From positions 1-55,595 of IMG/VR virus record IMGVR_UViG_3300003465_000007: DNA of 55,595 nt; one strand, written 5' to 3'. The DNA is from a virus (lineage: Duplodnaviria; Caudoviricetes). A program made the translations under genes and the position numbers. The notes under the pieces were generated by a model. That model had not been told where the DNA came from. It did not search any database and saw only the letters and a list, made by a program, of their open reading frames with translations. Shown piece after piece: positions 12,491 through 36,811 of this stretch. Within the stretch, counting starts at the first letter, position 1, and every line of letters begins with the position of its first letter.

Positions 12491-12573
12491 AACAAAAAAG
12501 GGGCGGCCTCTCAGTACTGAGAGGCCGCCCCGATTCGGTCGAATCCGAGGGCTATGCGATTTCTCCTAGTTTA
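12491..12573 (-). promoter_or_regulatory. Late promoter/attenuator element, copy upstream of lysis cassette
   Basis: TAAACT-N13-T-AGCCCTCGGATTCGACCGAATCGGGGC overlapping a 32-bp palindromic terminator plus T6. Confidence 0.8.
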
Positions 12574-12579
12574 CTCGCC

Positions 12580-13071
12580 TCAAGGGACTTTCAGCATGCG
12601 TTTGCTCCACAGATCCTGGCTGAGAATCTGGGTCACCTGCGCGCCAACGTACACGTACGCCAGCGCGGTGTGTCCCAGGGGCAGGCTGGGCGGACACGGG
12701 ATCCCGCTCGGCGTACCCTGGGTCAGGCGGATCGCGAAGTTGCTATCAACGGTCACCAGGTCGATCCGCGGGTTCGCCAGATCTGGCGTCGGGATGGAGA
12801 GGTTGGCGCCGCCGCCACTGCCGGCCACGCCCAGGATGGTCGCGGTGTACGCGGCCACGAACACGCTCAGGTTGGGCGTGGCCTGAGAACTGACCTGCCC
12901 GCCCAGGTTGATGACGTTCCCGAGGATCACGGACTGGATGATCTCCGAGTCCGTCTCGCACCACCGCGCGAACTCCGGATGCACCGTGTTCTGCGGATCC
13001 GCCACGGTGAAGCCGTCGGAATCAGAGTAGGCGTTGCCCACTCCACCCCCGAGCAGCATGAGCATGGTCAT
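12580..13071 (-). CDS. Minor tail/structural protein
   Basis: Likely start MTMLMLLGGG; PRIDLV motif; end of tail module. Confidence 0.65.
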   Translation of the reverse strand: MTMLMLLGGGVGNAYSDSDGFTVADPQNTVHPEFARWCETDSEIIQSVILGNVINLGGQVSSQATPNLSVFVAAYTATILGVAGSGGGANLSIPTPDLANPRIDLVTVDSNFAIRLTQGTPSGIPCPPSLPLGHTALAYVYVGAQVTQILSQDLWSKRMLKVP

Positions 13072-13655
13072 TTGCGCGCGGCACTCCGTGCGGGAGCCGC
13101 GGCCATCTCCAGCACCTCGGCGCGTTTCGCCTCCAGCGCGCGCTCCTCGATCTCGCGCTCGATTGCCACGGCTTTCGCCTCTGCCCGGTCGGCCAGCTTG
13201 CCGAGCTGCACCTGCTCGTATGGATCCTTGCTCGCATCCCGCTTCGCGACGAACAGCGCCGCTTCCATGCGAGCGGCCTCCAGCTCGGCGGCCCGCGCGA
13301 CCTCCTGGGCGGTTGCTGCCTCGGCGTCCACCTCGGCCTGCAGGCGGTCGGACTCCGCCGGGGGCAGGCAGTCCCAGGCGCTGCGTTCGATCACCCGGGC
13401 CCGTAGGTGCCCCTCGCTGGTCCCAGCCAGGTAGGTCGCGTCCGGGAACTCCGCCGCTCGTGGGTCCAGCCCCAGCTTGGCGCCTCCGTCGAGGTAGCCC
13501 TTCACCAGGTCGGTCAGTATCTGCTCCGCGTCTGCCCGCTTGGCGTACCCCTTCACCTCCCCGTGGGCGTAGGGCCAGCCCTTGTCTGGGATCACCTGCA
13601 CCTGGTAGACGGTCTGTCCCTGCAGCTTCTGGATGTCGTCTCGCTTGCTGGCCAC
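13068..13655 (-). CDS. Tail-module hypothetical protein with coiled C-terminus
   Basis: AGGAGG RBS; position. Confidence 0.7.
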   Translation of the reverse strand: MASKRDDIQKLQGQTVYQVQVIPDKGWPYAHGEVKGYAKRADAEQILTDLVKGYLDGGAKLGLDPRAAEFPDATYLAGTSEGHLRARVIERSAWDCLPPAESDRLQAEVDAEAATAQEVARAAELEAARMEAALFVAKRDASKDPYEQVQLGKLADRAEAKAVAIEREIEERALEAKRAEVLEMAAAPARSAARK

Positions 13656-13664
13656 GTGGTCCTC

Positions 13665-14429
13665 CTATGGCGCGTCGTAATAGGGATATGCGAGCCCCTG
13701 CCCGCGGTTCCACAACTGTTTGATCTCGTCATCGCTCAGCGCCCGCTTCCAGGCGCTCGGCTGCCACATCAAGCCATCGAAGAACCAATCCGCAAGTGCT
13801 GGCCGTGCACCCATCGAGAAGTTGCCGGTGACATCGGCCTGGAGGTCATTCGTGCCGGTGTACTCCACGTCAACCGGGGCCCCGTCCACGAAGAGTCGAA
13901 CTCGCAGATCGGTCGAACTTCGACGGTCAACCCTCCCCGTCACCATCTGCCAGTTGGTGCTGGGCGACCCTCCGGTAGCCTGTACCACGGAGCCGAAGTT
14001 GTAGGAGAACAGGAATCGGAACACCGAGACATCGACATAGAGTTGGATCGTCGGGTTTCCGTACTGCCCGCTGCCCATGATCTGCGCCTGGATTGCCGCC
14101 GTCTCCAACTTGATGAAGCTGTTGAACGTGCAGCTCGTGTTTCGGAAGTCACAGTCACCCGTTGACGCGCGGTAGTGGTACTGGCTATTGCTCAGCTCGT
14201 AATCGACCGATGGGCCATTCCCGGCTGGCGCATTGCCTCCGGCTGGGTTTCCTCCAATTCCGACCGCTCCACTTCCACCCTTCGTCAGAGTGTTCCCACG
14301 GCCGGTGAGGTCGTAGTTCGGGCTACTGGTGCCGTCGAGTGGGGCCATGCAGAACACCAGTCCATCGAGCAAGCTGCTCGGCCTCCGCTGGTACGGTCGC
14401 GCGGGAGCGAGGCCCGCTGGTCGCGACAT
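13665..14429 (-). CDS. LamG/concanavalin-like tail protein
   Basis: WQMVTG, LFVDG, FFDGLM..WKRALSDDEIKQLWN. Confidence 0.8.
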   Translation of the reverse strand: MSRPAGLAPARPYQRRPSSLLDGLVFCMAPLDGTSSPNYDLTGRGNTLTKGGSGAVGIGGNPAGGNAPAGNGPSVDYELSNSQYHYRASTGDCDFRNTSCTFNSFIKLETAAIQAQIMGSGQYGNPTIQLYVDVSVFRFLFSYNFGSVVQATGGSPSTNWQMVTGRVDRRSSTDLRVRLFVDGAPVDVEYTGTNDLQADVTGNFSMGARPALADWFFDGLMWQPSAWKRALSDDEIKQLWNRGQGLAYPYYDAP

Positions 14430-14430
14430 C

Positions 14431-15627: not shown

Positions 15628-15680
15628 GGGGCCTCCTACTGCTTCAGCCGGATGTACGCGGGGTAGACGTATAATTGGGT

Positions 15681-16526: not shown

Positions 16527-16531
16527 GCAGA

Positions 16532-17086: not shown

Positions 17087-17099
17087 CAGCGACTCTCCA

Positions 17100-19346
17100 T
17101 TAGTTCAGCACCGTGGTGCTGCCTAGCGCCCCGGTTCCCAAGATCCAGTAGTTGGTCGGGTTCTCGCCCGCAGTCAAGGGCGCACCGTTTTCGGTCAGCG
17201 GCTGCACCGCGCTCAGCACAAAGGTGGTCTGCATCTCCAGGCCGCGATCGGGGGTCATGCGGAAGTCCTGGCCGATGCCCTCGATGTAGCAGGCCATGTT
17301 GCTGATCCCGAGGCGCGTCTTGAGGCGCAGCCCTTCCACGATCACCCGGTCGCTGACCTCCCGACGGAAGCACTGCACGAGCTGCGCGGTGGACATGCGG
17401 CTGTCCATCGGCATCACGAGCACCGGACGATTCAGCCGATGGCGATTCATCAGGAGCTGGCCCGCGCTCTGGGCGTCGCTCGTGCTGCGGTAGAGTTGGC
17501 CCGGGCGGGGATAGGTGCGCTTGCCGCTGCCCACGGTGACCTTCTGCGGATCGACCGCCTGGGCCCGGAAGCCGCGCGCCATGATGCGGGTGAGGTGCGC
17601 GGTGACCGCCGCGTTGTTGGTGACCGTGAACTTCATCTGGTTGCCGGCCTTCTCGACGTTCGAGACGGCCAGATCGCCCGCCACGATGGGGGCGTCAAAC
17701 AGGATGTCGGTCCCGACCACCGGGGTAGTCCACTGGTCCACGAATTGGTTGTTGAGGTTATTGAGTCCAAAGGTGGCCGTAAAGGCGCGTGACGCCCCGG
17801 CCGGGATGAACACGTCGTACTGCACCAAGCGGCCGGACGTCTCGTAGTCCGCCTCGGTGTAGGTCCACAGCACGCCCAGGTTCGTGTCCACCACGAAGGC
17901 CGGCAGGACGTAGTTCACCACGTCGAACACCTCGGTCCGCATGAAGCTGTATCCACTGGGAACCAGGTCCGTGTAGTGCACGTCCAACACGATGTCGTCG
18001 GTAAAGGTTTGCGCCGAGGTAACCGATGCGGGGCGGGTGAGGCGCCGACTGCGCGACTCGAAGACGAGGTCGCCTCGCTTCGACTCCCTGGCCAGACCAA
18101 GCTCGACGTCTTCCTGTAGGTGGATGGCGTCGAGCGCGATCAGGTCCTGCGGACTCCAGACCCCGACGTACACATCCCCGTCGTCGATGTCCCGCGCAGT
18201 GGCCGACCAGCCGGCCGCATCCGCCACCCGCCCCACGTGCCCGCCGGTGGTGATGAGGTCCTCGGCGCGGGTGGGGGCCAGGCTGATCTCCGGCACTGCC
18301 AGTTCCGAGAGCGGACCCAGCGCCTCGAGGTAGGCCTTTGCCTGACCATCCCGTCCGGTCACCGGGCGGAGATCGACCAGGGTCCCGGTCCACAGGTAGT
18401 CCACCACCGGCACCATGCTCCGGAACTGCACCTTGCGGTCGGTGGCCGGGAGATGGTCGAAGTTCACCGAGCGCGCGAAGGGGCTGTATTTGCCCAGGGC
18501 CCGCCCGTCGAAGGCCGCCAGCGAGCCGGACAGGTTCTCGACCGTGGCGCGGAACCAGCCAGCCGCCACCTGCTCGGTGAGGCGGCCGCTCTGACGGCCG
18601 GTGAAGCAACTCACCTCCAGCCCGTCGGTGCTGAGATCCTCACTGACGCCATCGCCGTTGACGTCCGTCTCGTCGAAGTCGCCGTCGTCGTCCCAGTCCA
18701 CCAGGAGGCGCACCACGGCGTCCCCGTTGGGGGTGCTGCTGAAGTCCGGGGTGACGATCTTGGAGGCCGAGCCGACCCGAATCAGCACGTCGCGGTCCGC
18801 CGCGCCGCCTGCGCCCGAGATGACCCAGGCGAGCTGGAGGAACAGGTACTCCGCCTGCAGCCCGAACCGCCCGGGGTTAAAGGTGATGGTGCAGGTCTGA
18901 GGGGAACCGGGGGTGAGGTTGGTCACCGCGGAGCTGACCAGCGGTCCCAGTGTGACCTCGCGGGCCTTGCTCCCGTCGACCTGATCGGATACCCACAGCC
19001 GTGCCCGCAGCGCGCCGTCCTGGTCTCCACCGCTGCTGACCGCGACCACCGGAATGGTGATGGTCCAGGTGCCGGCCGCGAACTGGCCGGTGAACGGACC
19101 GGCCTCCCACGCATCGCCGAGCGTGGGATCGAGCTCAACATCCGTCGGGAGTACCGTGGCCCCGAAGACCGACGAAGCGCGCAGGAAGCCAGCCGCCAGT
19201 AGGGCGTAGGCGGTAGCCGCCGTGGTGCCGACCGTCCATCCGGTGCCGGTGGTCGCGGTGGCTGGCGGCGATCCCCCGTCCTGCAGCGCCATCATGGCCG
19301 AGCCGGCAAAGAGGGAGTTGAGTAAGTACAGCGTCTTCACCGCCAT
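17100..19346 (-). CDS. Large minor tail (distal tail/hub-like) protein
   Basis: Follows tape measure; VDWDDDGDF, YSP motifs. Confidence 0.75.
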   Translation of the reverse strand: MAVKTLYLLNSLFAGSAMMALQDGGSPPATATTGTGWTVGTTAATAYALLAAGFLRASSVFGATVLPTDVELDPTLGDAWEAGPFTGQFAAGTWTITIPVVAVSSGGDQDGALRARLWVSDQVDGSKAREVTLGPLVSSAVTNLTPGSPQTCTITFNPGRFGLQAEYLFLQLAWVISGAGGAADRDVLIRVGSASKIVTPDFSSTPNGDAVVRLLVDWDDDGDFDETDVNGDGVSEDLSTDGLEVSCFTGRQSGRLTEQVAAGWFRATVENLSGSLAAFDGRALGKYSPFARSVNFDHLPATDRKVQFRSMVPVVDYLWTGTLVDLRPVTGRDGQAKAYLEALGPLSELAVPEISLAPTRAEDLITTGGHVGRVADAAGWSATARDIDDGDVYVGVWSPQDLIALDAIHLQEDVELGLARESKRGDLVFESRSRRLTRPASVTSAQTFTDDIVLDVHYTDLVPSGYSFMRTEVFDVVNYVLPAFVVDTNLGVLWTYTEADYETSGRLVQYDVFIPAGASRAFTATFGLNNLNNQFVDQWTTPVVGTDILFDAPIVAGDLAVSNVEKAGNQMKFTVTNNAAVTAHLTRIMARGFRAQAVDPQKVTVGSGKRTYPRPGQLYRSTSDAQSAGQLLMNRHRLNRPVLVMPMDSRMSTAQLVQCFRREVSDRVIVEGLRLKTRLGISNMACYIEGIGQDFRMTPDRGLEMQTTFVLSAVQPLTENGAPLTAGENPTNYWILGTGALGSTTVLN

Positions 19347-22300
19347 GCGCGGGCTCCCCGCGCGGCGAGGTTCATCTGGCCCGCGACCATGCCGTTCTCC
19401 AGATGGTGCTGGTCGATCACGGCCACCATGGGGTTCGCGGCGAGGGCGGCGGCGAGCGCGTGAATGCTGGCGGGGGACAGCTCGAGCGTGGCGCTGTTGC
19501 CGCTAGATAAGCTGCCGCTGGGACCACCGGTGGTAGTGCCTCCGCCGGTGGTCCCACCGCCGCTATTGACGCCGTGCAGCGAGGCTGCCAGACTCACCGC
19601 TTTCTGAAGATCCTCAACCATCCCATCGTAGGTCGAGTCGGCCACATCCTTGATCTGGGGCAGCAGGGTATCACGGATCAACTCCATCCGGCCCTCCAAC
19701 TTGCCGTACTCCAACTTCGCGACCCTTTCCGTCTCGGCCAGCGCCGCGTTGGCGTTCTTCTCGACGTCGGCCGCCCGGTCTAGGATGTCCTGCTGTCGGC
19801 GTAGCAGGTCCTCATTGGTGAACGACTTCTCAAGGTCACGCGCTGAAGCCTTCAGCCGATCAGCGATCCCTTCCAGCGCCCGCCGGTGTTCTTCGGCGGC
19901 GTTCAGGTCCGCGGTCTGGTCGGCCTTCCGCTGGGTACGATCGTCGGTCGCGCGCTGCTGTTGCTTGGCGCGCTGCGCATCTTCCGCTGCCCACCGGTCT
20001 TTGAGCTTCTGCATCTCATCGTCGACTTCGCTGCGGGCCTTCCCCATCCCCTGGCCGAGGTTGGCGTCCTTCCCCGCGGACTCGGCCCGCTTGCGCATCG
20101 ACGCCTGGAGGTCGGCCAGCTCCTTCGCCCGCTTCTCCGTGGTGTCCTCGACGTAGCGGTTGATATCCCGCTCGAGGTCGCGCGTCTCGCGCGTGTCCTG
20201 GACCCGCTGGCGCTCCTGCTGATAGCGGGTGTTCTCCGCGTCGGTCTCGCCCTTCGAGCCTTGCTGCAGCGCGTCCCGCTGGCCCTGTCGCTCCTCATTC
20301 CGCCGGAAGTCAGCCCAGAGCTGATCAACTTCTTGCTCAGCCCGCTGCCTGGCGTTGGTGATCGTCTCTTCGGTCCGCTGGATGGCCACGTTGATGGTCT
20401 CTTCCATCTTCTGTCGGGCGATCTCGAGCGGCAGCTCGAGGTTCAGGTTCTGCAGCATCGACTCGAAAGCGGCCCGCGTCTCAGGCGTCTTGTCCGTGAT
20501 CATGGTGCGGAAGGCGTCCATCAGCTCGCCGGCCAGCTGGCTCGCCCGCTCTGGCGACAGGTCCGGGTTCTGCAGGAGCGTCGCCTGCATGCTTTGGACG
20601 GAGCGGGCCAGGGTGGCAATGTTCTGCTGGCCGCCTTCCTCCCACGCTCGGTTGAGCGCATCCATGATCGAGGCGCCGCCGCTGCCGAAACTGGCGGAGA
20701 GCTGGGCCGCGTCGAAGGCCTTCGCGAAGCTCTCCGGGGTCAGCGCGTTGGCTGCCTTGATGGCTTCCGTGACCGTCCGGATCATCTCCATGGCCGCTGC
20801 TCGCGCGGCCGGGTTGCCCCGCTCGATCAAGGCATCATGGAAGGCGCCGGCCAGCGCGTCCGCGACGTCCTGGAAGTCGGTAATCCCAGCCTCGCGCATC
20901 TTGGTGGTGGCGTCCTGAACCCAGGTCCGCAGCGCGGCACCGGCCGCCCCGCTGTTCTCCCGCATGGCCGTTTCGAGCGCGTTGGCGCCCTTGCCGCCCC
21001 ACTCCCCGAAGATCGCCGCGAAACGGGTCTCTGCGCTGGCCGCCCGCATGAAACCTTCGATCGCGCTCTCCTGCATGGCCTCGCCCGCCGCGAGGCCAGC
21101 GCCCTTCGCACCTGCCACGGCCGGTGCGCGCGTAGCTCCCCCGAATTGGTTCCCGGTGTAGGTGCCGCCCTCCCGCGCCGCGGGGCCGGCCGCGGTGGTC
21201 GCTTCGGCGATCACTTCCGAGACGGTCTCCGGGAACGTATTCGCGCTGTATTCGGCCCAGGCCGCGTTGAAGGCAGCTACGTTGGCCTGGATCTCCGACT
21301 GACGGAGCGTCACCCCACCGGAGGTAACCGTCGGGTCGTAATTGGCGTAGCCGAGCGCACGCTCTTCCTGGCTGACGCGGGTGCCATTGAATTGATCGTC
21401 TACCCAGGTCCCGGCCGCACTCGCGCCAGCGCCAATCCCGCTGGCCATGCCTCTTAGCAGGGCATCCTTGAGCTTGGCCCCGGCCGCGAACATCATGGCC
21501 GCACCCTTGTCCTCCACCCACTGGAGGATGCCGCCCGCGAACTCGGTGAATTTCGTGATGGCCCACGGAAGGGCCTGATCGACAATCCAGTCCACGGTAG
21601 CCGGTAGCCACTGCTCGAGGAACTTTTGGGCGAGCAGCTTGGCCTTTTCTTCCACCCAGGGCCCGAGCACGCCCCAGATCTCTTCGACCTTCTTCCCGAG
21701 CGCTTCCGCCGCGCCGGGTACCCAATCGACGAATGCTTCCGCCCACTGGGCAACCGTCTTGTCGATCGCGTCCAGCGAGTCCTTCAGGTTGCTGGCGCCG
21801 AAGACGCTCCCGAACGCCTCCCCGATCCCGCCCAGCTTCGGCAGCACCTGCGACTCCAGAAAGTCCGCCACCGGGGCCATGCGGGTCAGCAGGTCATCGA
21901 AGCCCCGGGCCATCCCCTGCAGCGCAGCCTGAAACTCGGGGCGGTTGGCCGCGTCGGTCAGGCGCTGCATCTGCTCCGTAGCGCGGTCGAAGAACGGTTC
22001 AATGACGGTGCCCATCGCCTGGTTGAAGGTGTCCCGTAGGGTAGAAGCCAGTCCGCCGAACGTGCGGCTCTGTTTTTCCATCAACCCGTTGAATCGCTCG
22101 TCCATCAGGTTGAGCACGCCGGCGATGGCATCGCCGGAACGGACCGCGCCGCGGCTCACCAGGTCCATCGCCTCGGGCACGGACACCCCGATTTGCTTGG
22201 CGAGACCTTCCCAGGCCGGCACGCCGAGCTCCGTGATCTGCATCAGCTCCTCGGCCGATGCCGTGCCCTTCGCCTGCATCTGGCCGAGCGCCATCACCAC

Positions 22301-22804
22301 GCGGTTGATGCCCTCGTCGCCCTTGCCCAGCCCGGCCATGGCGTCGCCAATGGAACCAAGCATGGGGATGATCTGCTGCGATTGGAAGCCCATCGCCTGC
22401 AGCTTCTGGGAAGCGTCGATCACGCCGGGCAACTCGAATGGGGTCTGTGCAGCGAAGGCCGTCAGGTCCTGCAGGTGCTGCTTCGCCGCGTCCGACGATC
22501 CCATCATGGTCTCGAAGGCGAGCAGGGATTGTTGCTGTAGGTTGTTGAACTTGAATCCCGCGTCGACTGCACCCCGCAGCCGGTCGATGGCGGCTCGCGC
22601 CGCGTCCACCGCCACGATGGCCACCGCGAACCCGGCCGCCTGTTTGGCGACCGAACCGAACGCGTCCCCCAGGCCGCTGAGACTCCGACTGCCTTCGTGC
22701 CCGGCGCGGACCAGCCGCTCGACGCTCTCGCGGGCTTGGTCGGTCGGCTGAGACAGCTTGTTATCCCCGCGTAGGATGGCGAGGATCTCTATGCCATCAC
22801 TCAC
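19337..22804 (-). CDS. Tape measure protein
   Basis: 1155 aa, FAAQTPFE, LGQMQAKG..EEL.Q..E.GVP tape-measure motifs. Confidence 0.95.
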   Translation of the reverse strand: MSDGIEILAILRGDNKLSQPTDQARESVERLVRAGHEGSRSLSGLGDAFGSVAKQAAGFAVAIVAVDAARAAIDRLRGAVDAGFKFNNLQQQSLLAFETMMGSSDAAKQHLQDLTAFAAQTPFELPGVIDASQKLQAMGFQSQQIIPMLGSIGDAMAGLGKGDEGINRVVMALGQMQAKGTASAEELMQITELGVPAWEGLAKQIGVSVPEAMDLVSRGAVRSGDAIAGVLNLMDERFNGLMEKQSRTFGGLASTLRDTFNQAMGTVIEPFFDRATEQMQRLTDAANRPEFQAALQGMARGFDDLLTRMAPVADFLESQVLPKLGGIGEAFGSVFGASNLKDSLDAIDKTVAQWAEAFVDWVPGAAEALGKKVEEIWGVLGPWVEEKAKLLAQKFLEQWLPATVDWIVDQALPWAITKFTEFAGGILQWVEDKGAAMMFAAGAKLKDALLRGMASGIGAGASAAGTWVDDQFNGTRVSQEERALGYANYDPTVTSGGVTLRQSEIQANVAAFNAAWAEYSANTFPETVSEVIAEATTAAGPAAREGGTYTGNQFGGATRAPAVAGAKGAGLAAGEAMQESAIEGFMRAASAETRFAAIFGEWGGKGANALETAMRENSGAAGAALRTWVQDATTKMREAGITDFQDVADALAGAFHDALIERGNPAARAAAMEMIRTVTEAIKAANALTPESFAKAFDAAQLSASFGSGGASIMDALNRAWEEGGQQNIATLARSVQSMQATLLQNPDLSPERASQLAGELMDAFRTMITDKTPETRAAFESMLQNLNLELPLEIARQKMEETINVAIQRTEETITNARQRAEQEVDQLWADFRRNEERQGQRDALQQGSKGETDAENTRYQQERQRVQDTRETRDLERDINRYVEDTTEKRAKELADLQASMRKRAESAGKDANLGQGMGKARSEVDDEMQKLKDRWAAEDAQRAKQQQRATDDRTQRKADQTADLNAAEEHRRALEGIADRLKASARDLEKSFTNEDLLRRQQDILDRAADVEKNANAALAETERVAKLEYGKLEGRMELIRDTLLPQIKDVADSTYDGMVEDLQKAVSLAASLHGVNSGGGTTGGGTTTGGPSGSLSSGNSATLELSPASIHALAAALAANPMVAVIDQHHLENGMVAGQMNLAARGARAWR

Positions 22805-27174: not shown

Positions 27175-28092
27175 TCAATTCGTGATTCTTTGGGCCATCT
27201 GCCACAGGCCATAGCCCGCGCTGCAGCGCATGTCCACGCCGTACGCGAATTTCTTGGTCTTGAAGACCTCCGCGTCCGAAGGGTTGTTCACTGCCGCGAA
27301 TTCCGGCTGCTTCCGCCACTGGAAGAGCAGGGGCTTGATCGGCTGGCGCGTGCACAGCAGGAACCAGTCGTTCAGGTCGGTGAGCAGCGAATCGACCATG
27401 ATGTCCGCCGCGTTCAGCAGCACGTTGGACTGCTGCGTACCGCTGGAGAGGGCGATCATGTTGGTGTGGATGAGCTGCTCGAACACGTCCTCCAGGTCCG
27501 GCGGCACAATCACCAGGTCGGGTCGCAGGTTCATCGGGCGGGCCTTCCCGTCCTTGGTGCGGCGCATGGCCGTCCGGGCAGAGATGAAGTCCGCCCGCAC
27601 TTGGGCCAGCGTGGTGCCGGTCCCGGTGTTGGTGTTGGACTGCGTGCCCGATCCGTCCTCGCTGTGGGAGGCGGAGAAGAAGTTCGCGCCGTCATAGCAG
27701 GCGGTCGAGCCCCCGGCCACCAGCGCGGTCACTGCCAGCTCCGCTGGGTAGCGGGCCGCTTCCTGCCCGAGTTGCTGGATGCGCGGGCGGATCAGGTTGT
27801 ACTTGTCGTCTTCGAGGGTGTCGCGGTCGACCTCGATCGACGCCTCGTAGTGCTTGTTCTTGAGGCTGTAGGTCGACGGCACCAACCCCTGCAGGTTGCG
27901 CTGGTCGATCCACTCGCTCATCTTGGGAACGGTGCCAAGCCAGTTATAGGACTCGGTGTCCGTCTCCGAGGGGACAATCGTGCAGTACCGCTCATAGTCC
28001 ACCGCGCTCGACGCGGCCAGGAAGGCATCCTCCCAGATCACGCGGAAGTTGGTGAACAGACCGGCCAGGAAATCGCTGGTAACGACAGCCAT
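27175..28092 (-). CDS. Major capsid protein (Mu gpT-like)
   Basis: YNWLG..PKMSEW, NKHYE.SI.V.RD..EDD, KPLLFQ.RK, AGYGLWQMA. Confidence 0.95.
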   Translation of the reverse strand: MAVVTSDFLAGLFTNFRVIWEDAFLAASSAVDYERYCTIVPSETDTESYNWLGTVPKMSEWIDQRNLQGLVPSTYSLKNKHYEASIEVDRDTLEDDKYNLIRPRIQQLGQEAARYPAELAVTALVAGGSTACYDGANFFSASHSEDGSGTQSNTNTGTGTTLAQVRADFISARTAMRRTKDGKARPMNLRPDLVIVPPDLEDVFEQLIHTNMIALSSGTQQSNVLLNAADIMVDSLLTDLNDWFLLCTRQPIKPLLFQWRKQPEFAAVNNPSDAEVFKTKKFAYGVDMRCSAGYGLWQMAQRITN

Positions 28093-28227
28093 CGGATGCG
28101 CTCCTTACGAGTGCCCCCGGTAGGTGTCCGCCTACTGCATCTTCAGCGTGAGGGGGATGTTCAATTGCCTTTCGCTTGGGTGAGGGGTGCGCCCGTTGGG
28201 AGGTACCGGGCGCACCCCTCCGGTTCG

Positions 28228-28959
28228 CTACGGGATGACGAAGAAGCTGATCTTCAGCGTCCCGTTCAGGGCCTGCGAGGCGTGGTTGTTCTGGACGAGG
28301 ATCACGACGGACCCGGCCCCCGGCGTCACCCGCGTGACTACCGGCACACCCTGAGTATTGGTGCCGTTGTCCACGCTGGCGAACACGCGGCTGGTGGCCG
28401 CGATCTTGGTGTTGGTCAGGGTCAGCGTGTACTGCGCCGCCGCGGCGGTGGTGAGCGCCTCGGAGGTAATGGTGCCGCTGAGCTGACTGAGCGTCGCCGC
28501 TCCAGCCACCGCGGTCGCCACGCCCGCGCTGGCCTGCTCGGCCTGCGGGCCGGTGGGGCTCGAAACGTAGACCCAAACGGAGGTGGCCGACACATACTCG
28601 CTGATGTAGCCGGCCAGGTTGCCGCCCGCGCCGGGGGCCAGCTGCACGGTCTGGTCGTCGAGGGCGAAGACGGGCTTGCCGACGTCGGTCTGCGCCATGC
28701 CCGCCGCCACCAGCAGGAAGTGGCGATCCGAGAGCACGCGCACGTTCTTGGCACCCGCGCTGCCCGCGCTGTTGTCGACCTTCTCGTCGGCGATGCCGAT
28801 CACCAGTTCGCCCACGGTGTTGCGGGCAGGGCGGGCATAGCCGCCGGACAGGACCACCTGCCCGCCCTTGTAAATGGTGACGCTGGCCTCGACGGGGTAG
28901 CTCTTGATGGTCCCGCTACCCTTGGACTGCGTGTTGCGATCCGCTGAAAGTGCGGTCAT
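28228..28959 (-). CDS. Head decoration/cement protein
   Basis: ALSADRNT, IYKG, GIA.E.VDNSAG, DDQTV. Confidence 0.75.
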   Translation of the reverse strand: MTALSADRNTQSKGSGTIKSYPVEASVTIYKGGQVVLSGGYARPARNTVGELVIGIADEKVDNSAGSAGAKNVRVLSDRHFLLVAAGMAQTDVGKPVFALDDQTVQLAPGAGGNLAGYISEYVSATSVWVYVSSPTGPQAEQASAGVATAVAGAATLSQLSGTITSEALTTAAAAQYTLTLTNTKIAATSRVFASVDNGTNTQGVPVVTRVTPGAGSVVILVQNNHASQALNGTLKISFFVIP

Positions 28960-28997
28960 GGATTACTCCTTGATGCGTGGGATGGGTAGCGTGGGAG

Positions 28998-30371
28998 CTA
29001 CTGCACGCCGGCTGCGGCCAGCCGCCGCTCGGCGAGGCGCTCGGAGAGCGGGCGGGTATCCGCCAGCCGCTCCTCGGGGACGCCCATCTTCTGGCCGATC
29101 GTCCGCGCGGCGTCGCCGATCTCCGGCGCGCCCTCGCTGGACTGGCTGGAGCCGTTCTCGCCGAACTCGACGAGCTTCGGCGAGCTCTCCAGGTAGGCGG
29201 TGAAGGCCTCCTGATTCGAGAGGCACAGGCTGCGCGCCCAGGACCGCATCTTCGGCAGGACCTTGCCGTCCCGGATCGCCTGATCCACCAGGGTGTCCGC
29301 CTGGTGCTCAGCCTCAAGCCGGACGTACTCGGCGTTCTTGGCCTTCTCCGCCACGAGGTCGGCCTTCACCGCCTCGTGGTCTGCGAGCTCGACCTGGGTG
29401 GCCCGCATGCGGATGAGGGCCGTCTTCACGTCCTCATCCTCCTTCAGGCCCAGCAGCGCGCGAATCTCCGCATCGGTCATGGTTTCCGCTCCTTCTTGTG
29501 AGGTGCCCGACGCCCTCGCAGACGTCGGTGGAGCGCCGGCGGGATTCGCCGCGGGCGCAGGTGGAGGGGTAGCGGCAGCGCGCGGGGTGGGATCCGCCGC
29601 GCTGGCCAGGGCAGCCGCGGCTTCGGCTGACTGCCCGGTGGGGACGTACTCGATCTTCACTGGCACCGGGGTGCCGAGCGTGACCATCCCCGCATCGTCA
29701 ATGGAGTAGGGGACCATCCAGAAGTCATCGCCATCCTGGTCCATCACGATCACACGGTCGGCGTACAGATCGCGGATCGACGGCGAGGGGCCGTCCAGGT
29801 TGGCGCCCTGCGGGTAGCAGCAGCACTCGTCATCCCACAGATACGGGTAGCTGTCGCAGAGCGCCCCGAAGACGAGCGAGCGAATGCGGTCGAAGCTGTC
29901 ATCGGAGAGGGTGACGATCGTGACCTCGCGGTTCTGGTCGTCGTGGTAGAGGGCAACGATGTCGTCGAGGCTGCTCACCGCTGGGGCGTCCTCGCCCAGC
30001 CAACTCACCGCCTTCAGCACGGCGGGGTAGACGGTGCCTTCGAACGCGGCGTTAAACCAGATCTCGCAGCTCCGCGAGCGGTAGGCGTTGGCCTTGATGA
30101 GGTCGGCCACCTTGCGCGGCACGTCCGCGAAGTCGGCCAGCAGGGTGCTGCCCTTTCGGTAGAGGTTGGTGACCCAACCCGCGGCGGGCAGGCCATCGGA
30201 GGCGAGGAGCTGCTGCTCATCGTTGTGGCCGAGCTTGCCGGGGACGTTGTAGACCCCGCGCAGGGCGTGGAAGGCGCCCACCATGGCGTCGAGATCGGCG
30301 CCCGTGTACTCGCGACCATTCCAACGCCCAATGCGAATTATTTCCACGCCTGGAATGCCTACTGTTTCCAT
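28998..30371 (-). CDS. Mu I-like prohead protease/scaffold
   Basis: GH, PAAGWV, YRSRS.E, L...PAV; C-terminal scaffold (LVDQAIRDGK). Confidence 0.9.
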   Translation of the reverse strand: METVGIPGVEIIRIGRWNGREYTGADLDAMVGAFHALRGVYNVPGKLGHNDEQQLLASDGLPAAGWVTNLYRKGSTLLADFADVPRKVADLIKANAYRSRSCEIWFNAAFEGTVYPAVLKAVSWLGEDAPAVSSLDDIVALYHDDQNREVTIVTLSDDSFDRIRSLVFGALCDSYPYLWDDECCCYPQGANLDGPSPSIRDLYADRVIVMDQDGDDFWMVPYSIDDAGMVTLGTPVPVKIEYVPTGQSAEAAAALASAADPTPRAAATPPPAPAANPAGAPPTSARASGTSQEGAETMTDAEIRALLGLKEDEDVKTALIRMRATQVELADHEAVKADLVAEKAKNAEYVRLEAEHQADTLVDQAIRDGKVLPKMRSWARSLCLSNQEAFTAYLESSPKLVEFGENGSSQSSEGAPEIGDAARTIGQKMGVPEERLADTRPLSERLAERRLAAAGVQ

Positions 30372-30417
30372 TACTGCGCTCCAGTGTGCACGAGTGGTAA
30401 AATCTGGGCATAGCAAT

Positions 30418-30461
30418 GCCCCCGCGTGGCTGTAACCACCGGGGGCTTGGCACCACGGAGG
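30418..30461 (+). ncRNA. Bulged leader hairpin upstream of HNH fragment
   Basis: GCCCCCG-C-GTGG-CTGTAA-CCAC-CGGGGGC-TTGGCAC; same fold at 38984-39027. Confidence 0.55.
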
Positions 30462-30469
30462 TCGATTCC

Positions 30470-30940
30470 ATGGCGCATCCTCAGTCTACCCCCAGCACTT
30501 TCACCTGTCCTCCGTTCGGGCAAACCCGTCCCATGCCCCCATCGCAGATCAAGAAGCTGCGCTATTGCTCTCTGGAGTGCCGGCGCGCAGCGATGACCTA
30601 CGGAGTCTGTCCTCAGTGCGGGAAGGACTTCGTGTTTCCGCGTGGACGTAAGGCCCGCTACTGCTCCCGGGCGTGCTACACCAGCGCTCGCCAACTGACT
30701 GATGCACAGTTCGTCGCACGCTTCTGGTCGCTGGTCGAGAAGAATGGTCCTGTCTTGCAAGCAGATTTGGGGCCGTGCTGGCTCTTTACGGGGCATCTGG
30801 ACAAAGACGGCTATGGCATTCTTCAGCGCGGACGGAGAGGATCCACAAACTCGGTCACGAAGCGGGCGAATCGATTCTCGTACGAACTCGCGAAGGGGCG
30901 TCTCCGTCCCGGTCAGGGTGGCCGCTTCGTAGTGCACTGA
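30470..30940 (+). pseudogene. Truncated HNH endonuclease lacking the HNH core
   Basis: Zn ribbons, RFWSLVEKNGP..LGPCW..GYG..RFSYELAKG then stop. Confidence 0.8.
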
Positions 30941-30955: not shown

Positions 30956-31042
30956 CACAAAAAAAGGGGCGGTCTCCCCGTGAAGGGAGACCGCCCCGAT
31001 CTGATCTGATCCGAGGGCTATTCGCTTGCCAGGATCATACCA
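30956..31042 (-). promoter_or_regulatory. Late promoter/attenuator element, copy upstream of protease-capsid block
   Basis: TGG-TATGAT-N13-T-AGCCCTCGGATCAGATCAGATCGGGGC overlapping terminator plus T7. Confidence 0.85.
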
Positions 31043-32044: not shown

Positions 32045-32141
32045 GGTTGACTCCTCACCGCAGCCTCAATCTCCATCCATTCGATCCACGCATCAGGTCC
32101 ATGGGAACCACCTCGAACGTTTGGGTGTTCATGGCCCCCTC

Positions 32142-34367
32142 CTACTTCAAGAAGTCGTACAGGTACACGCAGCGGCACCGGTCGCCGCCCTCGCAGCCGC
32201 TGTACGGCGGCATGTATCTGTCGTAGTCCGATGAGCCAACCGCGAACTCTCTCCCGTCCAGCGCCGCGCACGGGCTGCAGGTGTTCTGGTCCAGGATGGC
32301 CGAGTACTCGGCCACCTCGGCGCCGAGCTTCTTTGCCCCGTCGCTGCGGCCCGCGGACAGCGCGTCATGGATGAGGGAGGGCGCCACGTTCCGCGCCTGG
32401 CGCTCGAACACACGGGTGAGGGTGTCCATGATCTCGTTTTCGTCGAAGCGGCCGTCATCGGTCTGGCGGTTCATTAGCCGCGCGAACTCCGCCTTGCCCT
32501 GGATGACCAGGATGCCGGAGGTCGACTTCGCCTTATCCTGGAAGAACTTGAGGATGCGTGGCGGCAGGTCTTCGGCGTCGAAGTCGTCGTCAATCGCCAG
32601 GCTGGCGCTGCTCTCCTGCTTCCGCGCTTCCGCCTGCACCTGGCGCTGGCCGTTGCGGTACTGGTCGACCATCGCCTCGAGGATGGCGGTGGTGAGGTCC
32701 GCGCGGTTCGGCACGTCGATTTTGTCCACGTCGACGTGCTTCCCCTTGTCCACGAACTTCGTCTGCGCGACCCGCACCAGCTCCGCGATTTGCTGGCGCT
32801 GCACGGGTGCGACCGCGGCCACGAAGTCCCGCTTGGCCTGCTCAATCCCCGCGTCGATGGCCGCCAGGTCGGTGCGCTGCTCCCGTGGTCGCAGGTCGCG
32901 CCAGAAGAGCCGTGGTGCCCCCTTCGCGGCGAGCTGTGCCTTGGCAGCTTCCCCGCCTTCGCCCGTCTCGCCCTGGGAATCGGCATCCACGGTGGGGCTA
33001 CCGCCTCCCTCTTCGGTCGCCTCCTGGGGCAGGTCGGGCAAGCCAAGCTCCCGCCGCACGAAGTTCTCCGTGTCAGCGTCCGCGGTAAGCCCACCGCTGG
33101 TGAAGAGCTGCGCGATCTGGCCGAGCCATTCTTGGACCTTGCGCTGGTCGAGGTCGGCGACCACCACCATGGGATAGCGGTCGACCTGGAAGTTGAGATC
33201 CACCAGCGCGCGCACCAGGATGCGGTTGTACTCCCGGGCGATCAGCCAGGCGTGCGCCTTCAGCGCCATCAGGAAGAAGCTGGACTGATCGCGCGAGAGC
33301 GCCCAGGATCCGCTACCGCTGTCAAGGTTGAGGAAGCCGGCCAGCACGCTCCGAGCGATCATGCGGTCGTGGTGCTCGATGCTGGGCATGATGTCGCGCG
33401 GCCGTCCGTTCGGGGCCTCCAGGCGGAACTTCCAGCCGTAGGGGGCCAGCACGTAGCTCTTCTCATGGGCGTGCAGACTCATCAGGACCTTGGCCGCGAA
33501 GTCGCGATCGCTCTTCTGCGCGCCCTGGGGCTCCTCGAACACCGGGATGGCCAGCGCGTTCCGCTCCGCCCCGATTGCGTCGATCTTGTAGAAGGTCTCT
33601 TTCATGAACCAATGCTTGTAGGCGGAGCGCAGCAGCGAGATACCCTCGAAGTTGCTGCCCTCCTGGTCGAGCGTCCAGCGCACCAGGCCCGGGGTTGCGG
33701 CGCCCTTCCACGCGGGGATGTCGCGGAACTCGTACGTTCCGCCCTGGCTGATCAGGTTGGGGCCGACGGAGGCGCTCATGCGCGGTGCCTCGGTGCGCTT
33801 CGCCGGCACCCACACGCGCTGCTGGTAGATGTCCAGCTCGCCCTCGGGCGTCGGGTACCAGCGGTAGGTAGCTCGGGCGAGGCGCGGCGCCAGCCGGTCC
33901 AGGCGGATGCGGCGGTCAGCGCCCAGGGCCCAGATCGGCTCGGCGACCGCGTAGCCGTAGCGGTAGCAGCTCAGCGCGTGGGCCAGTCCGATCGGCTGCT
34001 GGCTGCCATCGCTGAAGAGGTTGTCGTGCACGAACTGCGCGATCTCGACGTCCTGCGGATCGTCGCTGGCCGGGTTGGTGGTCCAGGTGGCCGTCATGAG
34101 GGGCAGCTCGCAGACCTTGACCACCGCGCGCACCTGGCCATCGGAGCGGTACATGCGGTCGTACGCCCTGACCGCCTTGTCGCCCACCAGGTCCTGGAGG
34201 TACTCATCCCCGGTCAGGATGCCGTTCAGGAAGATGGTGCCGGTCGCCCCGCGCTCCTCGAAGCGGCCTGGCTCTTCCGCGGCCAGGTGGGCCGCCTGGG
34301 GCATCGGCTCGGGATCGGTGCGACGACGGATGACGAAGGGTCCGATCTGCATCTGCCTCACCCTCAC
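32142..34367 (-). CDS. Portal protein (Mu gp29/DUF935-like) fused to MuF-like minor head domain
   Basis: GYAVAE.IW, SLLRSAYKHW.K, GSWALS; C-terminal D..TC..C..LDG...CRC. Confidence 0.9.
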   Translation of the reverse strand: MRVRQMQIGPFVIRRRTDPEPMPQAAHLAAEEPGRFEERGATGTIFLNGILTGDEYLQDLVGDKAVRAYDRMYRSDGQVRAVVKVCELPLMTATWTTNPASDDPQDVEIAQFVHDNLFSDGSQQPIGLAHALSCYRYGYAVAEPIWALGADRRIRLDRLAPRLARATYRWYPTPEGELDIYQQRVWVPAKRTEAPRMSASVGPNLISQGGTYEFRDIPAWKGAATPGLVRWTLDQEGSNFEGISLLRSAYKHWFMKETFYKIDAIGAERNALAIPVFEEPQGAQKSDRDFAAKVLMSLHAHEKSYVLAPYGWKFRLEAPNGRPRDIMPSIEHHDRMIARSVLAGFLNLDSGSGSWALSRDQSSFFLMALKAHAWLIAREYNRILVRALVDLNFQVDRYPMVVVADLDQRKVQEWLGQIAQLFTSGGLTADADTENFVRRELGLPDLPQEATEEGGGSPTVDADSQGETGEGGEAAKAQLAAKGAPRLFWRDLRPREQRTDLAAIDAGIEQAKRDFVAAVAPVQRQQIAELVRVAQTKFVDKGKHVDVDKIDVPNRADLTTAILEAMVDQYRNGQRQVQAEARKQESSASLAIDDDFDAEDLPPRILKFFQDKAKSTSGILVIQGKAEFARLMNRQTDDGRFDENEIMDTLTRVFERQARNVAPSLIHDALSAGRSDGAKKLGAEVAEYSAILDQNTCSPCAALDGREFAVGSSDYDRYMPPYSGCEGGDRCRCVYLYDFLK

Positions 34368-34645
34368 CGGAACCGGATCTGTCCAAGGTAGCGCTGCCGA
34401 GGCGGCTTGGGAGCCAGCTCCGTCATGGGATCGTTGGCGAGCTTCTCCAACACCAGGGGATGGGCCAGGGACATGTGCGCAACCCGCGCGCAGTGCCAGG
34501 TGTACTCACCACAGACGAGACACTGATCGCGCCCGTGGCCCGCGTTGGCACAGGTGTCGCACAGCCGAGCGCTCAGGTTGGTTCCCTTCACCAGCCGAGG
34601 CCGGACACTCACCACGTATTCGGTACAGCACTCACAGCGTCGCAT
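34364..34645 (-). CDS. Small multi-CxxC zinc finger protein
   Basis: Three CxxC pairs; overlap with portal start. Confidence 0.55.
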   Translation of the reverse strand: MRRCECCTEYVVSVRPRLVKGTNLSARLCDTCANAGHGRDQCLVCGEYTWHCARVAHMSLAHPLVLEKLANDPMTELAPKPPRQRYLGQIRFR

Positions 34646-34800
34646 GGTCTACCCCCGCTCCCATTTCGGTGCAGAGAAGAGGGATCTACGGACACCGCCG
34701 CCTTGACGATGCCCGCCAGCCGTTCGCCGGTGTCAAGGTCTTCGACGTAGCGGTCACTCAGGTCCTCACCGATGTGGATCTTGAGCCGTTGGTGTTTCAT
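34609..34800 (-). CDS. Hypothetical protein
   Basis: TGATG coupling to terminase. Confidence 0.5.
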   Translation of the reverse strand: MKHQRLKIHIGEDLSDRYVEDLDTGERLAGIVKAAVSVDPSSLHRNGSGGRPCDAVSAVPNTW

Positions 34801-36119
34801 CAGAACCTCGGCAGTTGGACGATGGGGGCCGTGAAGCCGCGATCGTAGTCCTGAAAATCGGCGAACGATCCCGCCTGTATGGCGAGGCCCGGGATGACGT
34901 AGCGCAGTCCGTCCAGGCGATGGAATTGCTCTTTGTCCTTGATCTTGTCGGTCACCTCGCCGTCCTCGGTCAGCACGCGGCCGTAGGTTCCCAGCTCGTC
35001 GCGCACGCCGCTGCAGGTGTCGAACACGAAGAGGGAGCGGGCCTTGAAGCGCGCGATCACGCTGTCGATGCCTGATTCCACGTCGGCCACCAGCGGTTCC
35101 TGAACCGGCACGCCGGCCGCGGTCCAGTCCATGCGCTGCTGACTCTCCGACTTGGCGCCGCCGTACCAGGTCTGGAAGTTCGTATCTCGCACGCGCTCCA
35201 GCGCCTCGGCCGCGTGCTCAGCCGTCGTCTTGCCTCCGCTCAACGATTCGTTGTACAGGTAGGCCACGCCCGTCACCGGATCCTCGGCGACCAGGATCCG
35301 GGCGGTGTGCACCGCACCGAAGTCCAGCCCGCCGTACCGTGGCCAGTGGGGCGGGATGTCGAAGGCGTGCACCAGGTGGCCGCCCTGCTCGCGGTAGGTA
35401 TCGCGGAAGTCTTCGTAGATGAGCCCGGCCGGACGACTCATCTGGCCGAGCACGAACATCTCGTACTTCCAGCGGGCGAGGGTGCGCTGCAGCCGCTCGG
35501 CCTCTTCCTTCGGGTAGGCGGGGTTGGCCGTGCTGGGGAAGTTGATGACGTCATAGTCGCGGTCGCCGGCTTGCCAGCGGTCGTACCACTGCTGCTTGAG
35601 CCAGCCGAGGTTGTAGGGGGTGGTGCCCCCAAACACCCGACCGCGATGGAGCGCGAGCCGTCGCTGGATGGCCTCCCAACTCTCGAGGCGGAAGGTGTTC
35701 TGTCCGCACTCATCCAGCCAGGCGGCCTTGGCGGTGGCCGACTCCAACGATTCGGGATGGGTGGCCGATCCGAAGATCACGCGCGTCTTACCGTCGTGGA
35801 AGTAGAAGGTGTGGTCGCCCGCGTGCCAGCCTCCCAGGTGCAGGGTGTGCTCGAAGAGGCGGAGGAACTCGGGCAGCATCTTCAGCTTGAGCAACGGGAA
35901 GGTGGCCGTCACCGCGAGGTAGTCACCGGGTCCGCAGCGCTGGTACTCGCGGTAGAGCCAGTGGGGCCCGAAGCTCGTCTTCCCGCCCTGGCTGCCGGCC
36001 AGAGCCAGCACGAAGCGCCGCTCCGACTGCCACGCACGCGCCTGGCCGGGATGGAGGTTCAGCCGCAGATCGCCATCGGGCGTGATCTCGGTCATGGGAC
36101 GGATCACCGGGGCGGTCAC
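34800..36119 (-). CDS. terL: Terminase large subunit
   Basis: GSQGGKT Walker A, WLDE Walker B, TTP, GLDFG, H.LD.LRY. Confidence 0.95.
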   Translation of the reverse strand: MTAPVIRPMTEITPDGDLRLNLHPGQARAWQSERRFVLALAGSQGGKTSFGPHWLYREYQRCGPGDYLAVTATFPLLKLKMLPEFLRLFEHTLHLGGWHAGDHTFYFHDGKTRVIFGSATHPESLESATAKAAWLDECGQNTFRLESWEAIQRRLALHRGRVFGGTTPYNLGWLKQQWYDRWQAGDRDYDVINFPSTANPAYPKEEAERLQRTLARWKYEMFVLGQMSRPAGLIYEDFRDTYREQGGHLVHAFDIPPHWPRYGGLDFGAVHTARILVAEDPVTGVAYLYNESLSGGKTTAEHAAEALERVRDTNFQTWYGGAKSESQQRMDWTAAGVPVQEPLVADVESGIDSVIARFKARSLFVFDTCSGVRDELGTYGRVLTEDGEVTDKIKDKEQFHRLDGLRYVIPGLAIQAGSFADFQDYDRGFTAPIVQLPRF

Positions 36120-36706
36120 GTGTCGTCCTCAGCTGCGGGTTCGGCTTCGACGTCGGCCGGCAGCACTGCGGTGATGGTCCGGATGGTGATGGGCCGCTCG
36201 GCATCGCCCTGGTGGAGGTGGACATCCTTGCGGGCACCGAGTTCCTTGGCGATGTCATCCAGCAGGCCGCGGAACTGCTCGACCTCCTGATGGTTGAAGC
36301 GGAGGATATCCACCCGTTCGGCGTGCTCTCCGCTACCAATCTGCTTGACATCGGGGAGCCATCGACGATTGTTCTCCCCTTCCTCGGTGAGCTCGGCGAA
36401 GAGCACGTCTGCCAGCCGCTTCATGGACTGGATGCGCTCGTGGATGAGGGCATAGCCACTGTCCATGATCTCGCGGCGGTAGGCTGCTTCTCGCTCTTCG
36501 GCCTCTCTGGCTTCGCGGTCGGCGATCTCGGAGAGACGCGCCTGCCAGCCGTAGGCGACCGACCAGGCTTTGAGGGTTGCGAGCCGTGTGGTTGGGCTCG
36601 CTTTGGGCGCATTCTGGTAGCGCTCCAGCAAGCCCGCCAGGCTGCGCCCTGGTCCCAGAGCGAGATAGTCCGCCCATGCCTGTTGCGCTCGTGGTGTCTC
36701 TCGCAC
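36116..36706 (-). CDS. terS: Terminase small subunit
   Basis: N-terminal Y..LGP.RSL...WS..Y.W..R; overlaps terL. Confidence 0.8.
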   Translation of the reverse strand: MRETPRAQQAWADYLALGPGRSLAGLLERYQNAPKASPTTRLATLKAWSVAYGWQARLSEIADREAREAEEREAAYRREIMDSGYALIHERIQSMKRLADVLFAELTEEGENNRRWLPDVKQIGSGEHAERVDILRFNHQEVEQFRGLLDDIAKELGARKDVHLHQGDAERPITIRTITAVLPADVEAEPAAEDDT

Positions 36707-36721
36707 GCGCTTCTCCGCGCC

Positions 36722-36811
36722 AACAAAAAAGGGGCACGTCTCCCAAAGCTGGGAACGACGTGCCCCGATCGGATCGGACCCGAGGGCTGTTCAGCTAGGG
36801 GAATGGTATCA
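36722..36811 (-). promoter_or_regulatory. Late promoter/attenuator element, copy upstream of terS
   Basis: TGA-TACCAT-N13-C-AGCCCTCGGGTCCGATCCGATCGGGGC overlapping terminator plus T6. Confidence 0.85.

Follow-up and report, generated by a model that had tools for sequence, protein, structure and literature searches.

The genome of a tailed phage recorded in IMG/VR as IMGVR_UViG_3300003465_000007 (55,595 bp, analyzed in full and called the window here) contains on its minus strand three copies of a unit in which a 27-nt bulged hairpin runs directly into a strong intrinsic terminator. The units precede the small terminase gene terS, the block of the protease and the major head protein, and the block of membrane proteins and the amidase. 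Comparison with related phages supports the reading of the hairpin as a putative RNA antiterminator that overlaps each terminator and gates the late-gene blocks, and we place about even confidence in the more specific proposal that the units act site by site and need a sequence-specific factor. The layout is the same at all three sites. A −10-like hexamer of the form TAnnnT is followed by 14 nt, by the hairpin, and by a terminator that shares the bases GGGGC with the hairpin and ends in six or seven T residues. This is exactly the arrangement of hexamer, spacer, 27-mer and T tract that a first-pass annotation of the window had described, and its assignment of the units to packaging (terS, TerL, portal), capsid (protease, major head) and lysis (membrane proteins and amidase) modules agrees with the genes found behind them. 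The parts of the units are as follows.

36803-36808, minus strand: site 1, −10-like hexamer TACCAT, preceded by TGA (TG-extended), overlapping the stop codon of the open reading frame (ORF) 36809-37069
36796, minus strand: site 1, conserved A, the seventh base past the hexamer and the predicted +1
36762-36788, minus strand: site 1, 27-nt hairpin with a leading A, a 5-bp base GCCCU/GGGGC, a CG bulge, an upper stem and a loop
36725-36766, minus strand: site 1, intrinsic terminator with the stem-loop 36731-36766 (-27.3 kcal/mol) and T6 at 36725-36730
31034-31039, minus strand: site 2, −10-like hexamer TATGAT, preceded by TGG (TG-extended)
30993-31019, minus strand: site 2, 27-nt hairpin
30959-30997, minus strand: site 2, intrinsic terminator with the stem-loop 30966-30997 (-31.3 kcal/mol) and T7 at 30959-30965
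12568-12573, minus strand: site 3, −10-like hexamer TAAACT, without TG
12527-12553, minus strand: site 3, 27-nt hairpin
12494-12531, minus strand: site 3, intrinsic terminator with the stem-loop 12500-12531 (-31.7 kcal/mol) and T6 at 12494-12499

In each of the three units the first five nucleotides of the terminator are the 3' arm GGGGC of the hairpin. The 27-mers differ among the copies at 3-5 of 27 positions and the spacers at 7-11 of 14. The terminator interiors have diverged, as had been noted before: those of sites 2 and 3 differ at 8 of 32 positions, three fully compensatory pairs being among these differences. The seventh base after the hexamer, which is the canonical start position, is an A at all three sites, and leaders beginning there are predicted to be 72, 69 and 68 nt long. 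With regard to a sigma-dependent pause element among the first transcribed bases, as in lambdoid Q cassettes, positions +5 to +8 of these predicted leaders read GAAT, GCAT or GAAC and are without the A2/T6 signature of a −10-like element.

The three units with their exact layout lie far beyond chance. A pattern search of the window found three exact copies, compared to 0.28 matches expected in 100 shuffles even when up to three mismatches were allowed. A covariance model recovered only the three sites (44.9-46.7 bits), and the next match, at 15.9 bits, was the reverse strand of site 2. Not one of 200,000 random triples of window sequence had TAnnnT at one common offset. The hexamer, its exact distance of 14 nt, and the A at the predicted start are real and non-random in the window. 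The regions upstream of the three hexamers have no motif in common, with 13 identical columns in 90 versus 7.3 expected, which is at the level of chance.

The 27-mer folds as the first-pass annotation gave it, with the base GCCCU/GGGGC, the CG bulge, a 4-bp upper stem and a 6-nt loop, except that site 1 taken alone has a slightly better alternative minimum-energy fold. By itself the hairpin has a free energy of -10 to -11.7 kcal/mol, and it is seen in leader prefixes that extend up to about 15 nt past it. In the full leaders the terminator is the minimum-energy fold (-35.3, -37.3 and -37.4 kcal/mol), 7-12 kcal/mol better than the conformers that keep the hairpin (-23.5, -29.3 and -30.4 kcal/mol). 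When the hairpin is forced, the terminator stem is truncated and ends five bases from the U tract. Because five nucleotides are shared, base-pair logic makes the two structures mutually exclusive, as had been proposed; the leader folds agree and add that the terminator is the stable default. Termination is therefore the thermodynamic default, and presumably it is the default in function as well.

These features suggest the following mechanism. During transcription the 27-nt hairpin would form first, directly ahead of the late-gene block. Its 3' arm GGGGC would double as the first five bases of the stronger terminator stem, so that with no factor present the terminator would win and transcription would stop about 20 nt before the next gene. 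For readthrough the hairpin would have to be stabilized, most likely through a sequence-specific factor that recognizes the 2-nt bulge, the closing U·G pair and the base helix, which is invariant. A stabilized hairpin would deprive the terminator stem of its base, so that the stem would no longer abut the U tract. The hairpin and terminator would form a module acting terminator by terminator, and in the window phage the −10-like hexamer 14 nt upstream may in addition start a leader of about 70 nt for each unit. The function as an RNA, the existence of a factor acting in trans, and the start position of transcription are what we infer from this arrangement.

The positions of the downstream genes fit this mechanism. 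The next genes begin 15-25 nt past the T tract, each with its own Shine-Dalgarno sequence, and the gap between a terminator and the start codon behind it is too short to hold a promoter. The genes following the units should therefore be transcribed by readthrough only. A scan of the minus strand of the 28-kb late region found no other strong terminator with a U tract, and thus the late genes would depend on passing exactly three terminators.

Homologs of the two terminase genes are abundant. In public assemblies 3380 homologs of TerL were found at E<=1e-20 (best 72% identity) and 166 of terS at E<=1e-10, and profile-based locus searches with TerL and with terS yielded 80 IMG/VR loci each. Many of these relatives share the architecture of the window units at the corresponding places, ahead of terS and past the portal region. 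Its elements are a −10 hexamer, a short leader that often starts with ...GAAT-A, a structured segment specific for the lineage, a strong terminator, and the gene. One relative is a contig of 51.4 kb, G804 (66.4% G+C, 59% complete according to CheckV), with a terS 58% and a TerL 63% identical to those of the window. The leader before its terS aligns with site 1 of the window, and its plus strand carries nine copies of a corresponding unit (at 7772, 9947, 14367, 19569, 21333, 22965, 25420, 26952 and 39345), six of which were found by pattern search and three more by a covariance model at 20.3-21.7 bits. The element of G804, [A/C]GCCGU-A[U/C]-CCG-loop-[U/C]GG-GCGGC, has the same shape as that of the window and a different sequence, and the terminator after each of the nine copies starts with the 3' arm of the hairpin itself, GCGGC. 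The genes behind the G804 units include terS, a protease-like gene, the major head gene, which has units on both sides, and several genes of unknown function. A further contig, L095, has one copy (AGCCCG...CGGGC).

A hexamer TAnnnT was found within 45 nt upstream of only five of the nine G804 copies, with spacers of 11, 22, 26, 29 or 38, and 34 nt. The units had been called promoter-proximal, and as a feature of the family this does not hold. The four units without a nearby hexamer must act on RNA polymerase arriving from upstream. The conserved module is therefore the hairpin plus terminator and not the promoter plus hairpin, and the promoters that the window units may well carry would be a feature of this phage and not of the family. 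The terms 'promoter-proximal', 'host-type promoter' and 'phage factor' are accordingly best taken as interpretation.

Some additional features of the leaders were observed in the relatives. In the loci L069-L148, which are TerL relatives, 12 of the 65 strong terminators on the plus strand have the 5-mer GAATA in the 70 nt before them, versus 2.6 expected, and ATAGC and TAGCC are enriched in the same way. A box resembling AUAG (AUAG/GAAUA) precedes many of the G804 units. A second type of leader, which starts with AGGGCC, lies before a terminator upstream of terS in other TerL relatives, L075 (1-60), L077 (7340-7421) and L083 (2610-2693), and L075 and L077 have the terminator core GGTCGAAAGACC in common.

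The three copies of the window, the nine of G804 and the one of L095 form a family of 13 elements from three lineages. All 13 have a common shape, consisting of an unpaired A or C, a base helix of 5 bp, two unpaired bases on the 5' side, an upper stem of 3-5 bp, and a loop of 5-8 nt. The base helix is paired in 65 of 65 cells, and shifting the 3' partner by -1 to -3 columns lowers this to 26-38 of 65. At pair 4, where both sides have changed, the nine elements of G804 have G-C and the four of the window and L095 have C-G. At pair 5, 12 elements have U·G and the remaining one has G-C. The first three pairs of the upper stem hold in 12, 11 and 11 of the 13 elements. For G804 alone all 47 cells are paired, and its stems vary by wobble only (G-C/G·U 3:3 and C-G/U·G 5:1). 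In 12 of the 13 elements the 3' arm makes up the basal five nucleotides of the minimum-energy stem of the terminator, and in the thirteenth three of the five are paired. The tolerance of G·U pairs and the conserved U·G make sense only in the RNA of this strand, and an RNA element is favored over a DNA operator because the same shape and the same overlap recur in relatives, with pairs that change by wobble only or in a compensatory way. Each genome has its own constant version of the base helix, the bulge and the lower stem, while the loops and the interiors of the terminators diverge; a co-evolving binding partner would be expected to produce such a pattern. Taken as few independent lineages and not as statistical proof, these data are suggestive of conserved RNA pairing in the family. 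The earlier proposal of an RNA antiterminator overlapping the terminator thus gained from the homologs, in which the pairing of the base helix is kept throughout, and not from the window by itself, where the covariation is not significant.

Several observations weigh against the proposed antiterminator. The compensatory pair (C-G to U-A) and the wobble (A-U to G-U) to which the first-pass annotation had pointed are both real, but with three copies they carry no significance, since 156 of 500 shuffles were as good. The covariation across the family rests on three lineages, and the copies within G804 show no double-sided change. The stability of the hairpins exceeds that of shuffles only modestly (z about -0.5 to -1.95, and -0.7 to -1.95 for the 27-mers of the window). 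Leaders shuffled at constant composition pair with the base of the terminator nearly as often (p = 0.24, 0.07 and 0.60 for the window leaders; combined p about 0.04-0.05), and for all 65 strong terminators 31 such pairings were observed versus 24.6 expected. The exact spacing of 14 nt between hexamer and hairpin in the window is not needed by a mechanism that works on RNA only and is not explained by it. Finally, in L156 (537-640) and L157 (3303-3406), which have TTGACA directly upstream, a hairpin AGCCCUGC...GCAGGGGC starts and ends like the window element and lies 19 nt before the terminator, without overlap.

The search for the factor points in the same direction. A six-frame search of the whole phage gave no match to CAT_RBD (PF03123) or ANTAR (PF03861) at E<=1, and none to the Q families PF06530 and PF03589 or to Phage_AlpA (PF05930). 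Between the promoter at 38651 and site 1 there are ORFs of 77, 124, 86 (Cys-rich), 68 (zinc ribbon with a basic tail) and 91 aa and an ORFan of 86 aa. None of them belongs to an informative family, and neither the 80 TerL loci nor G804 contain a homolog of any of them. The ORFan is a candidate for the regulator by its position only.

36809-37069, minus strand: 86-aa ORFan immediately before site 1; a promoter-like site of its own lies at 37126-37153

Among 5.8 billion clusters it matches only itself, its Atlas score is 0.76, nothing was found in the PDB, and its AlphaFold model has a predicted local distance difference test score (pLDDT) of 55.8, which is too poor for a fold search. The non-coding stretch of 163 nt before it (37070-37232, minus strand) contains the promoter-like sequence CTGCCA-16-TAGAAT and inverted repeats GTAAC/GTTAC, and TAGAAT hexamers are also present before terS in the relatives L072, L073 and L079. 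The two small Cys-rich ORFs of 86 and 68 aa (37505-37964, minus strand) have overlapping stop and start codons; the 68-aa ORF, which has a basic C-terminal tail, lies inside an out-of-frame ORF of 129 aa and shows generic zinc-finger similarity only. The genes shared by the window and G804 are limited to TerL, terS, an XRE-type regulator and a small zinc-ribbon ORF (8120-8330). The XRE-type regulator, HTH139 (39057-39476, minus strand), is 79% identical over 72 aa to G804 4-219, where it is cut by the contig end, and this identity exceeds those of TerL (63%) and terS (58%). It looks like an ordinary XRE-type DNA-binding regulator and was discarded as a special factor; a locus search with it found nothing. 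In addition, 8-mers complementary to the arms of the hairpin are no more frequent than expected by chance. Because G804 is incomplete, a host factor or an unsampled phage gene is a possible partner.

A part of these results would also fit other explanations. The units might be self-contained leaky terminators, in which kinetic competition without any factor sets a fixed readthrough that tunes the dosage of the late blocks, with the identity of the copies stemming from duplication and concerted evolution. The failure of the domain and ORF searches to reveal a factor would agree with this, as would the hairpin being the first to form in prefix folds, a pairing potential little above that of shuffled leaders, and the units flanking the major head gene of G804, a classic place for dosage control. 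We nevertheless consider it unlikely. The preference for the terminator noted above needs a strand displacement of only 5 bp to take effect, and nine serial terminators in G804 would leave little distal transcript unless readthrough is high. Furthermore, concerted evolution should homogenize whole units, whereas loops, spacers and terminator interiors have diverged around a fixed helix, bulge and lower stem. Processive antitermination from an RNA loading site similar to N/nut or HK022 put seems quite unlikely. Here the hairpin, alone or with a small basic protein, would render RNA polymerase resistant to terminators and the overlap would be secondary. Such a site would agree with a hairpin that lies immediately before each terminator and, in the window, some 9 nt from the predicted start, and also with the separated hairpins of L156 and L157, with the small basic or Cys-rich ORFs upstream of site 1, and with the frequent AUAG/GAAUA box before the units. 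However, a processive system needs one site per operon, and the presence of one element per terminator, nine in G804, argues against a purely processive system. The exact overlap of 5 nt is kept in 12 of 13 elements, and neither a boxA-like element nor the two-hairpin architecture of put was seen.

Control at the DNA level, as by Q, AlpA or GafZ, would turn the 27-mer into a double-stranded site that loads a phage protein onto RNA polymerase at three late promoters. The hexamer at a fixed distance of 14 nt and the A at the predicted +1 in all three units speak for this option, and a small gene directly upstream of the first unit is also found in Q cassettes (10.1101/651190). AlpA, GafZ and BrrG are such systems beyond the lambdoid phages, with promoter-proximal terminators (PMC7969949; PMC11150451; 10.1101/2024.11.20.624540). 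Yet the DNA sites of those systems lie between −35 and −10 or by an upstream pause element, whereas the conserved element of the window is transcribed and overlaps the terminator. The hexamer is absent from four of nine G804 copies and variably spaced in the others, which argues against a Q- or AlpA-type DNA site with a fixed promoter geometry. The missing common motif upstream of the window hexamers, variation that is wobble-compatible on one strand only, and the lack of Q or AlpA families in the phage further reduce the credibility of a DNA site, and we regard it as very unlikely. Least of all do we expect the units to be small-RNA genes or sites of RNA processing or stability, which would produce RNAs of about 70 nt or defined 3' ends and have nothing to do with gating. 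A predicted promoter and a terminator would indeed give RNAs of 68-72 nt, and the late promoter of phage lambda likewise gives a short RNA. But the downstream genes, with no room for a promoter after the terminator, would still need readthrough, and four of the nine G804 copies have no −10-like hexamer nearby.

If the units are RNA antiterminators overlapping their terminators, they would work most like the attenuators of the ribonucleic antiterminator/co-antiterminator (RAT/CAT) or ANTAR type, in which a weak hairpin lies over a strong terminator and acts locally. As in RAT/CAT systems (BglG, SacY, LicT), an imperfect hairpin of about 27-29 nt with a bulge or internal loop covers the 5' side of the terminator, is less stable than it and must be held, and there is one hairpin per terminator. 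The overlap of the 3' part of the hairpin with the 5' arm of the terminator, a feature of RAT/CAT, is present in all three window units and in 12 of the 13 family members. In contrast, the sequence appears unrelated to the RAT consensus, the phage has no CAT_RBD, and the setting is a phage late operon with 3-9 copies per genome instead of a sugar operon. ANTAR systems (AmiR, NasR, EutV) are similar in that a protein stabilizes a small hexaloop hairpin, the antiterminator, over a terminator. Their targets consist of two tandem hexaloop hairpins with conserved loop positions, whereas a single bulged hairpin with variable loops of 5-8 nt is found here, and no ANTAR domain. Lambda N/nut with boxB and HK022 put likewise use a phage RNA hairpin after the promoter to let RNA polymerase pass terminators, with a phage-specific hairpin and partner. 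BoxB is a 15-nt GNRA-like hairpin with boxA as partner, and put consists of two stem-loops. Both are processive over kilobases from one site per operon, unlike the single bulged hairpin with a fixed 5-nt overlap at each terminator described here. With the lambdoid Q, AlpA, GafZ and BrrG systems the window has in common that late structural and lysis genes lie behind a promoter-proximal terminator, with a small gene just upstream and a fixed −10-like element. These factors are processive from one site and bind to DNA within the promoter or beside it (PMC7969949; 10.1101/651190; 10.1101/2024.11.20.624540; PMC11150451). The present units differ, since their conserved element is repeated, is part of the transcript and runs into each terminator. 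The searches for Q and AlpA families in the phage were negative, and upstream of the window hexamers there is no common motif that could be the DNA site of a Q cassette, which lies in or just upstream of the promoter.

Searches for the exact element elsewhere were negative. The window had no Rfam match at gathering thresholds, with nothing below E=2.7 at the three sites, and the G804 units had no match at their positions at E<=1. The pattern of hairpin plus terminator had no match in IMG/VR. The hairpin pattern alone matched 41 stretches there, all without a following terminator, which look like chance matches in coding-like sequence. Five matches of the combined pattern in GTDB representative genomes and ten in JGI metagenomes were rejected, none having the upper stem or the context. 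Comparison of a 7-kb stretch with GenBank phages by blastn gave no match, and for sites 2 and 3 only short chance matches were obtained, the best of which falls within coding sequence of Ralstonia phage YO168_1 and has no terminator. Locus searches with TerL and portal as single proteins retrieved only relatives of 28-32% identity with a different base composition, and model R1 found nothing in these or in the 80 TerL loci, none of which contains the 27-mer of the window. TerL had no match in 401 sampled Actinomycetota genomes and one in 401 Pseudomonadota genomes, and a search among the relatives of the matching genome returned the same TerL match only. The seven weak matches of model R2 outside G804 were all chance matches in coding sequence without a terminator, and of the 17 matches of a descriptor search 11 were judged spurious by eye. 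A look for sequencing runs that contain this DNA gave none. A literature search covering main texts did not yield any account of repeated hairpin-terminator units in the late operon of a phage.

The window phage is a complete, temperate siphovirus of soil type. Its record of 55,595 bp has direct terminal repeats and a G+C content of 65.8%. The replication/methylase block is encoded on the minus strand and is followed by a block of small ORFs and by the late region, also on the minus strand. The main genes are the following.

4223-4732, plus strand: XRE-type repressor-like gene
5266-6228, plus strand: integrase
50837-52201, minus strand: primase-like gene
45057-47759, minus strand: helicase
36116-36706, minus strand: terS (small terminase, phrog_6299), first gene past site 1
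34800-36119, minus strand: TerL (phrog_2)
32142-34367, minus strand: portal-MuF (phrog_113)
start at 30937 (GTG), minus strand: 188-aa ORF, first after site 2
28998-30416, minus strand: head maturation protease, site 2 block
28228-28959, minus strand: virion protein, site 2 block
27175-28092, minus strand: major head protein, site 2 block (27175-30937)
19337-22804, minus strand: tape measure, followed by tail genes
12209-12469, minus strand: secreted 86-aa protein, first after site 3
9065-9535, minus strand: amidase-type endolysin, site 3 block (8120-12469)

The block of site 3 also holds membrane/coiled-coil ORFs, an ORF of 354 aa, and small ORFs down to 8120. Consensus sigma-70 promoters are present elsewhere in the genome, for example one matching at 12 of 12 positions at 38623-38651 on the minus strand. 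The C-terminal part of the portal protein (residues 617-737; gene 32142-34367, minus strand) is MuF- or protease-like and fused to it. The nearest isolate relatives of the portal are actinophages with about 30% identity, none above 31%, while named metagenomic homologs of TerL and terS come from Gemmatimonadales and Chloroflexota bins. Between the genes for the virion protein and the major head protein (28093-28227, minus strand) lies a G+C-rich hairpin of 14 bp without a U tract, which may be a U-less terminator or an mRNA stabilizer. A short gene on the plus strand, which runs toward the end of the late operon, is terminated by a strong hairpin at 8013-8044 with a T-rich tail on that strand.

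In textbook phages the late genes are controlled from a single promoter by a single processive factor (Q, N, or activators such as Ogr, C and RinA). A lineage-specific hairpin on every terminator of a 30-kb late operon would, if true, be a different design, which is local, modular and based on RNA. We tentatively propose, with rather less than even confidence, that the elements represent a new family of phage late-gene switches, in which a bulged hairpin sits on every terminator of the late operon and is bound by a co-evolving RNA-binding antiterminator of a new protein family, encoded by the phage or by the host. As an equally tentative part of this proposal each lineage would have a private code, GCCCU-CG in the window phage, GCCGU-AU in G804 and GCCCG-GG in L095. 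A dedicated binding protein, if it exists, would lie outside the known antiterminator families. The elements are short, repeated and equipped with natural compensatory variants, so that they are directly testable, and the 3380 TerL and 166 terS homologs would, with their contigs at hand, allow a proper test of covariation. If the proposal is true, the hairpin-protein pairs of different lineages would be ready-made orthogonal transcription switches.

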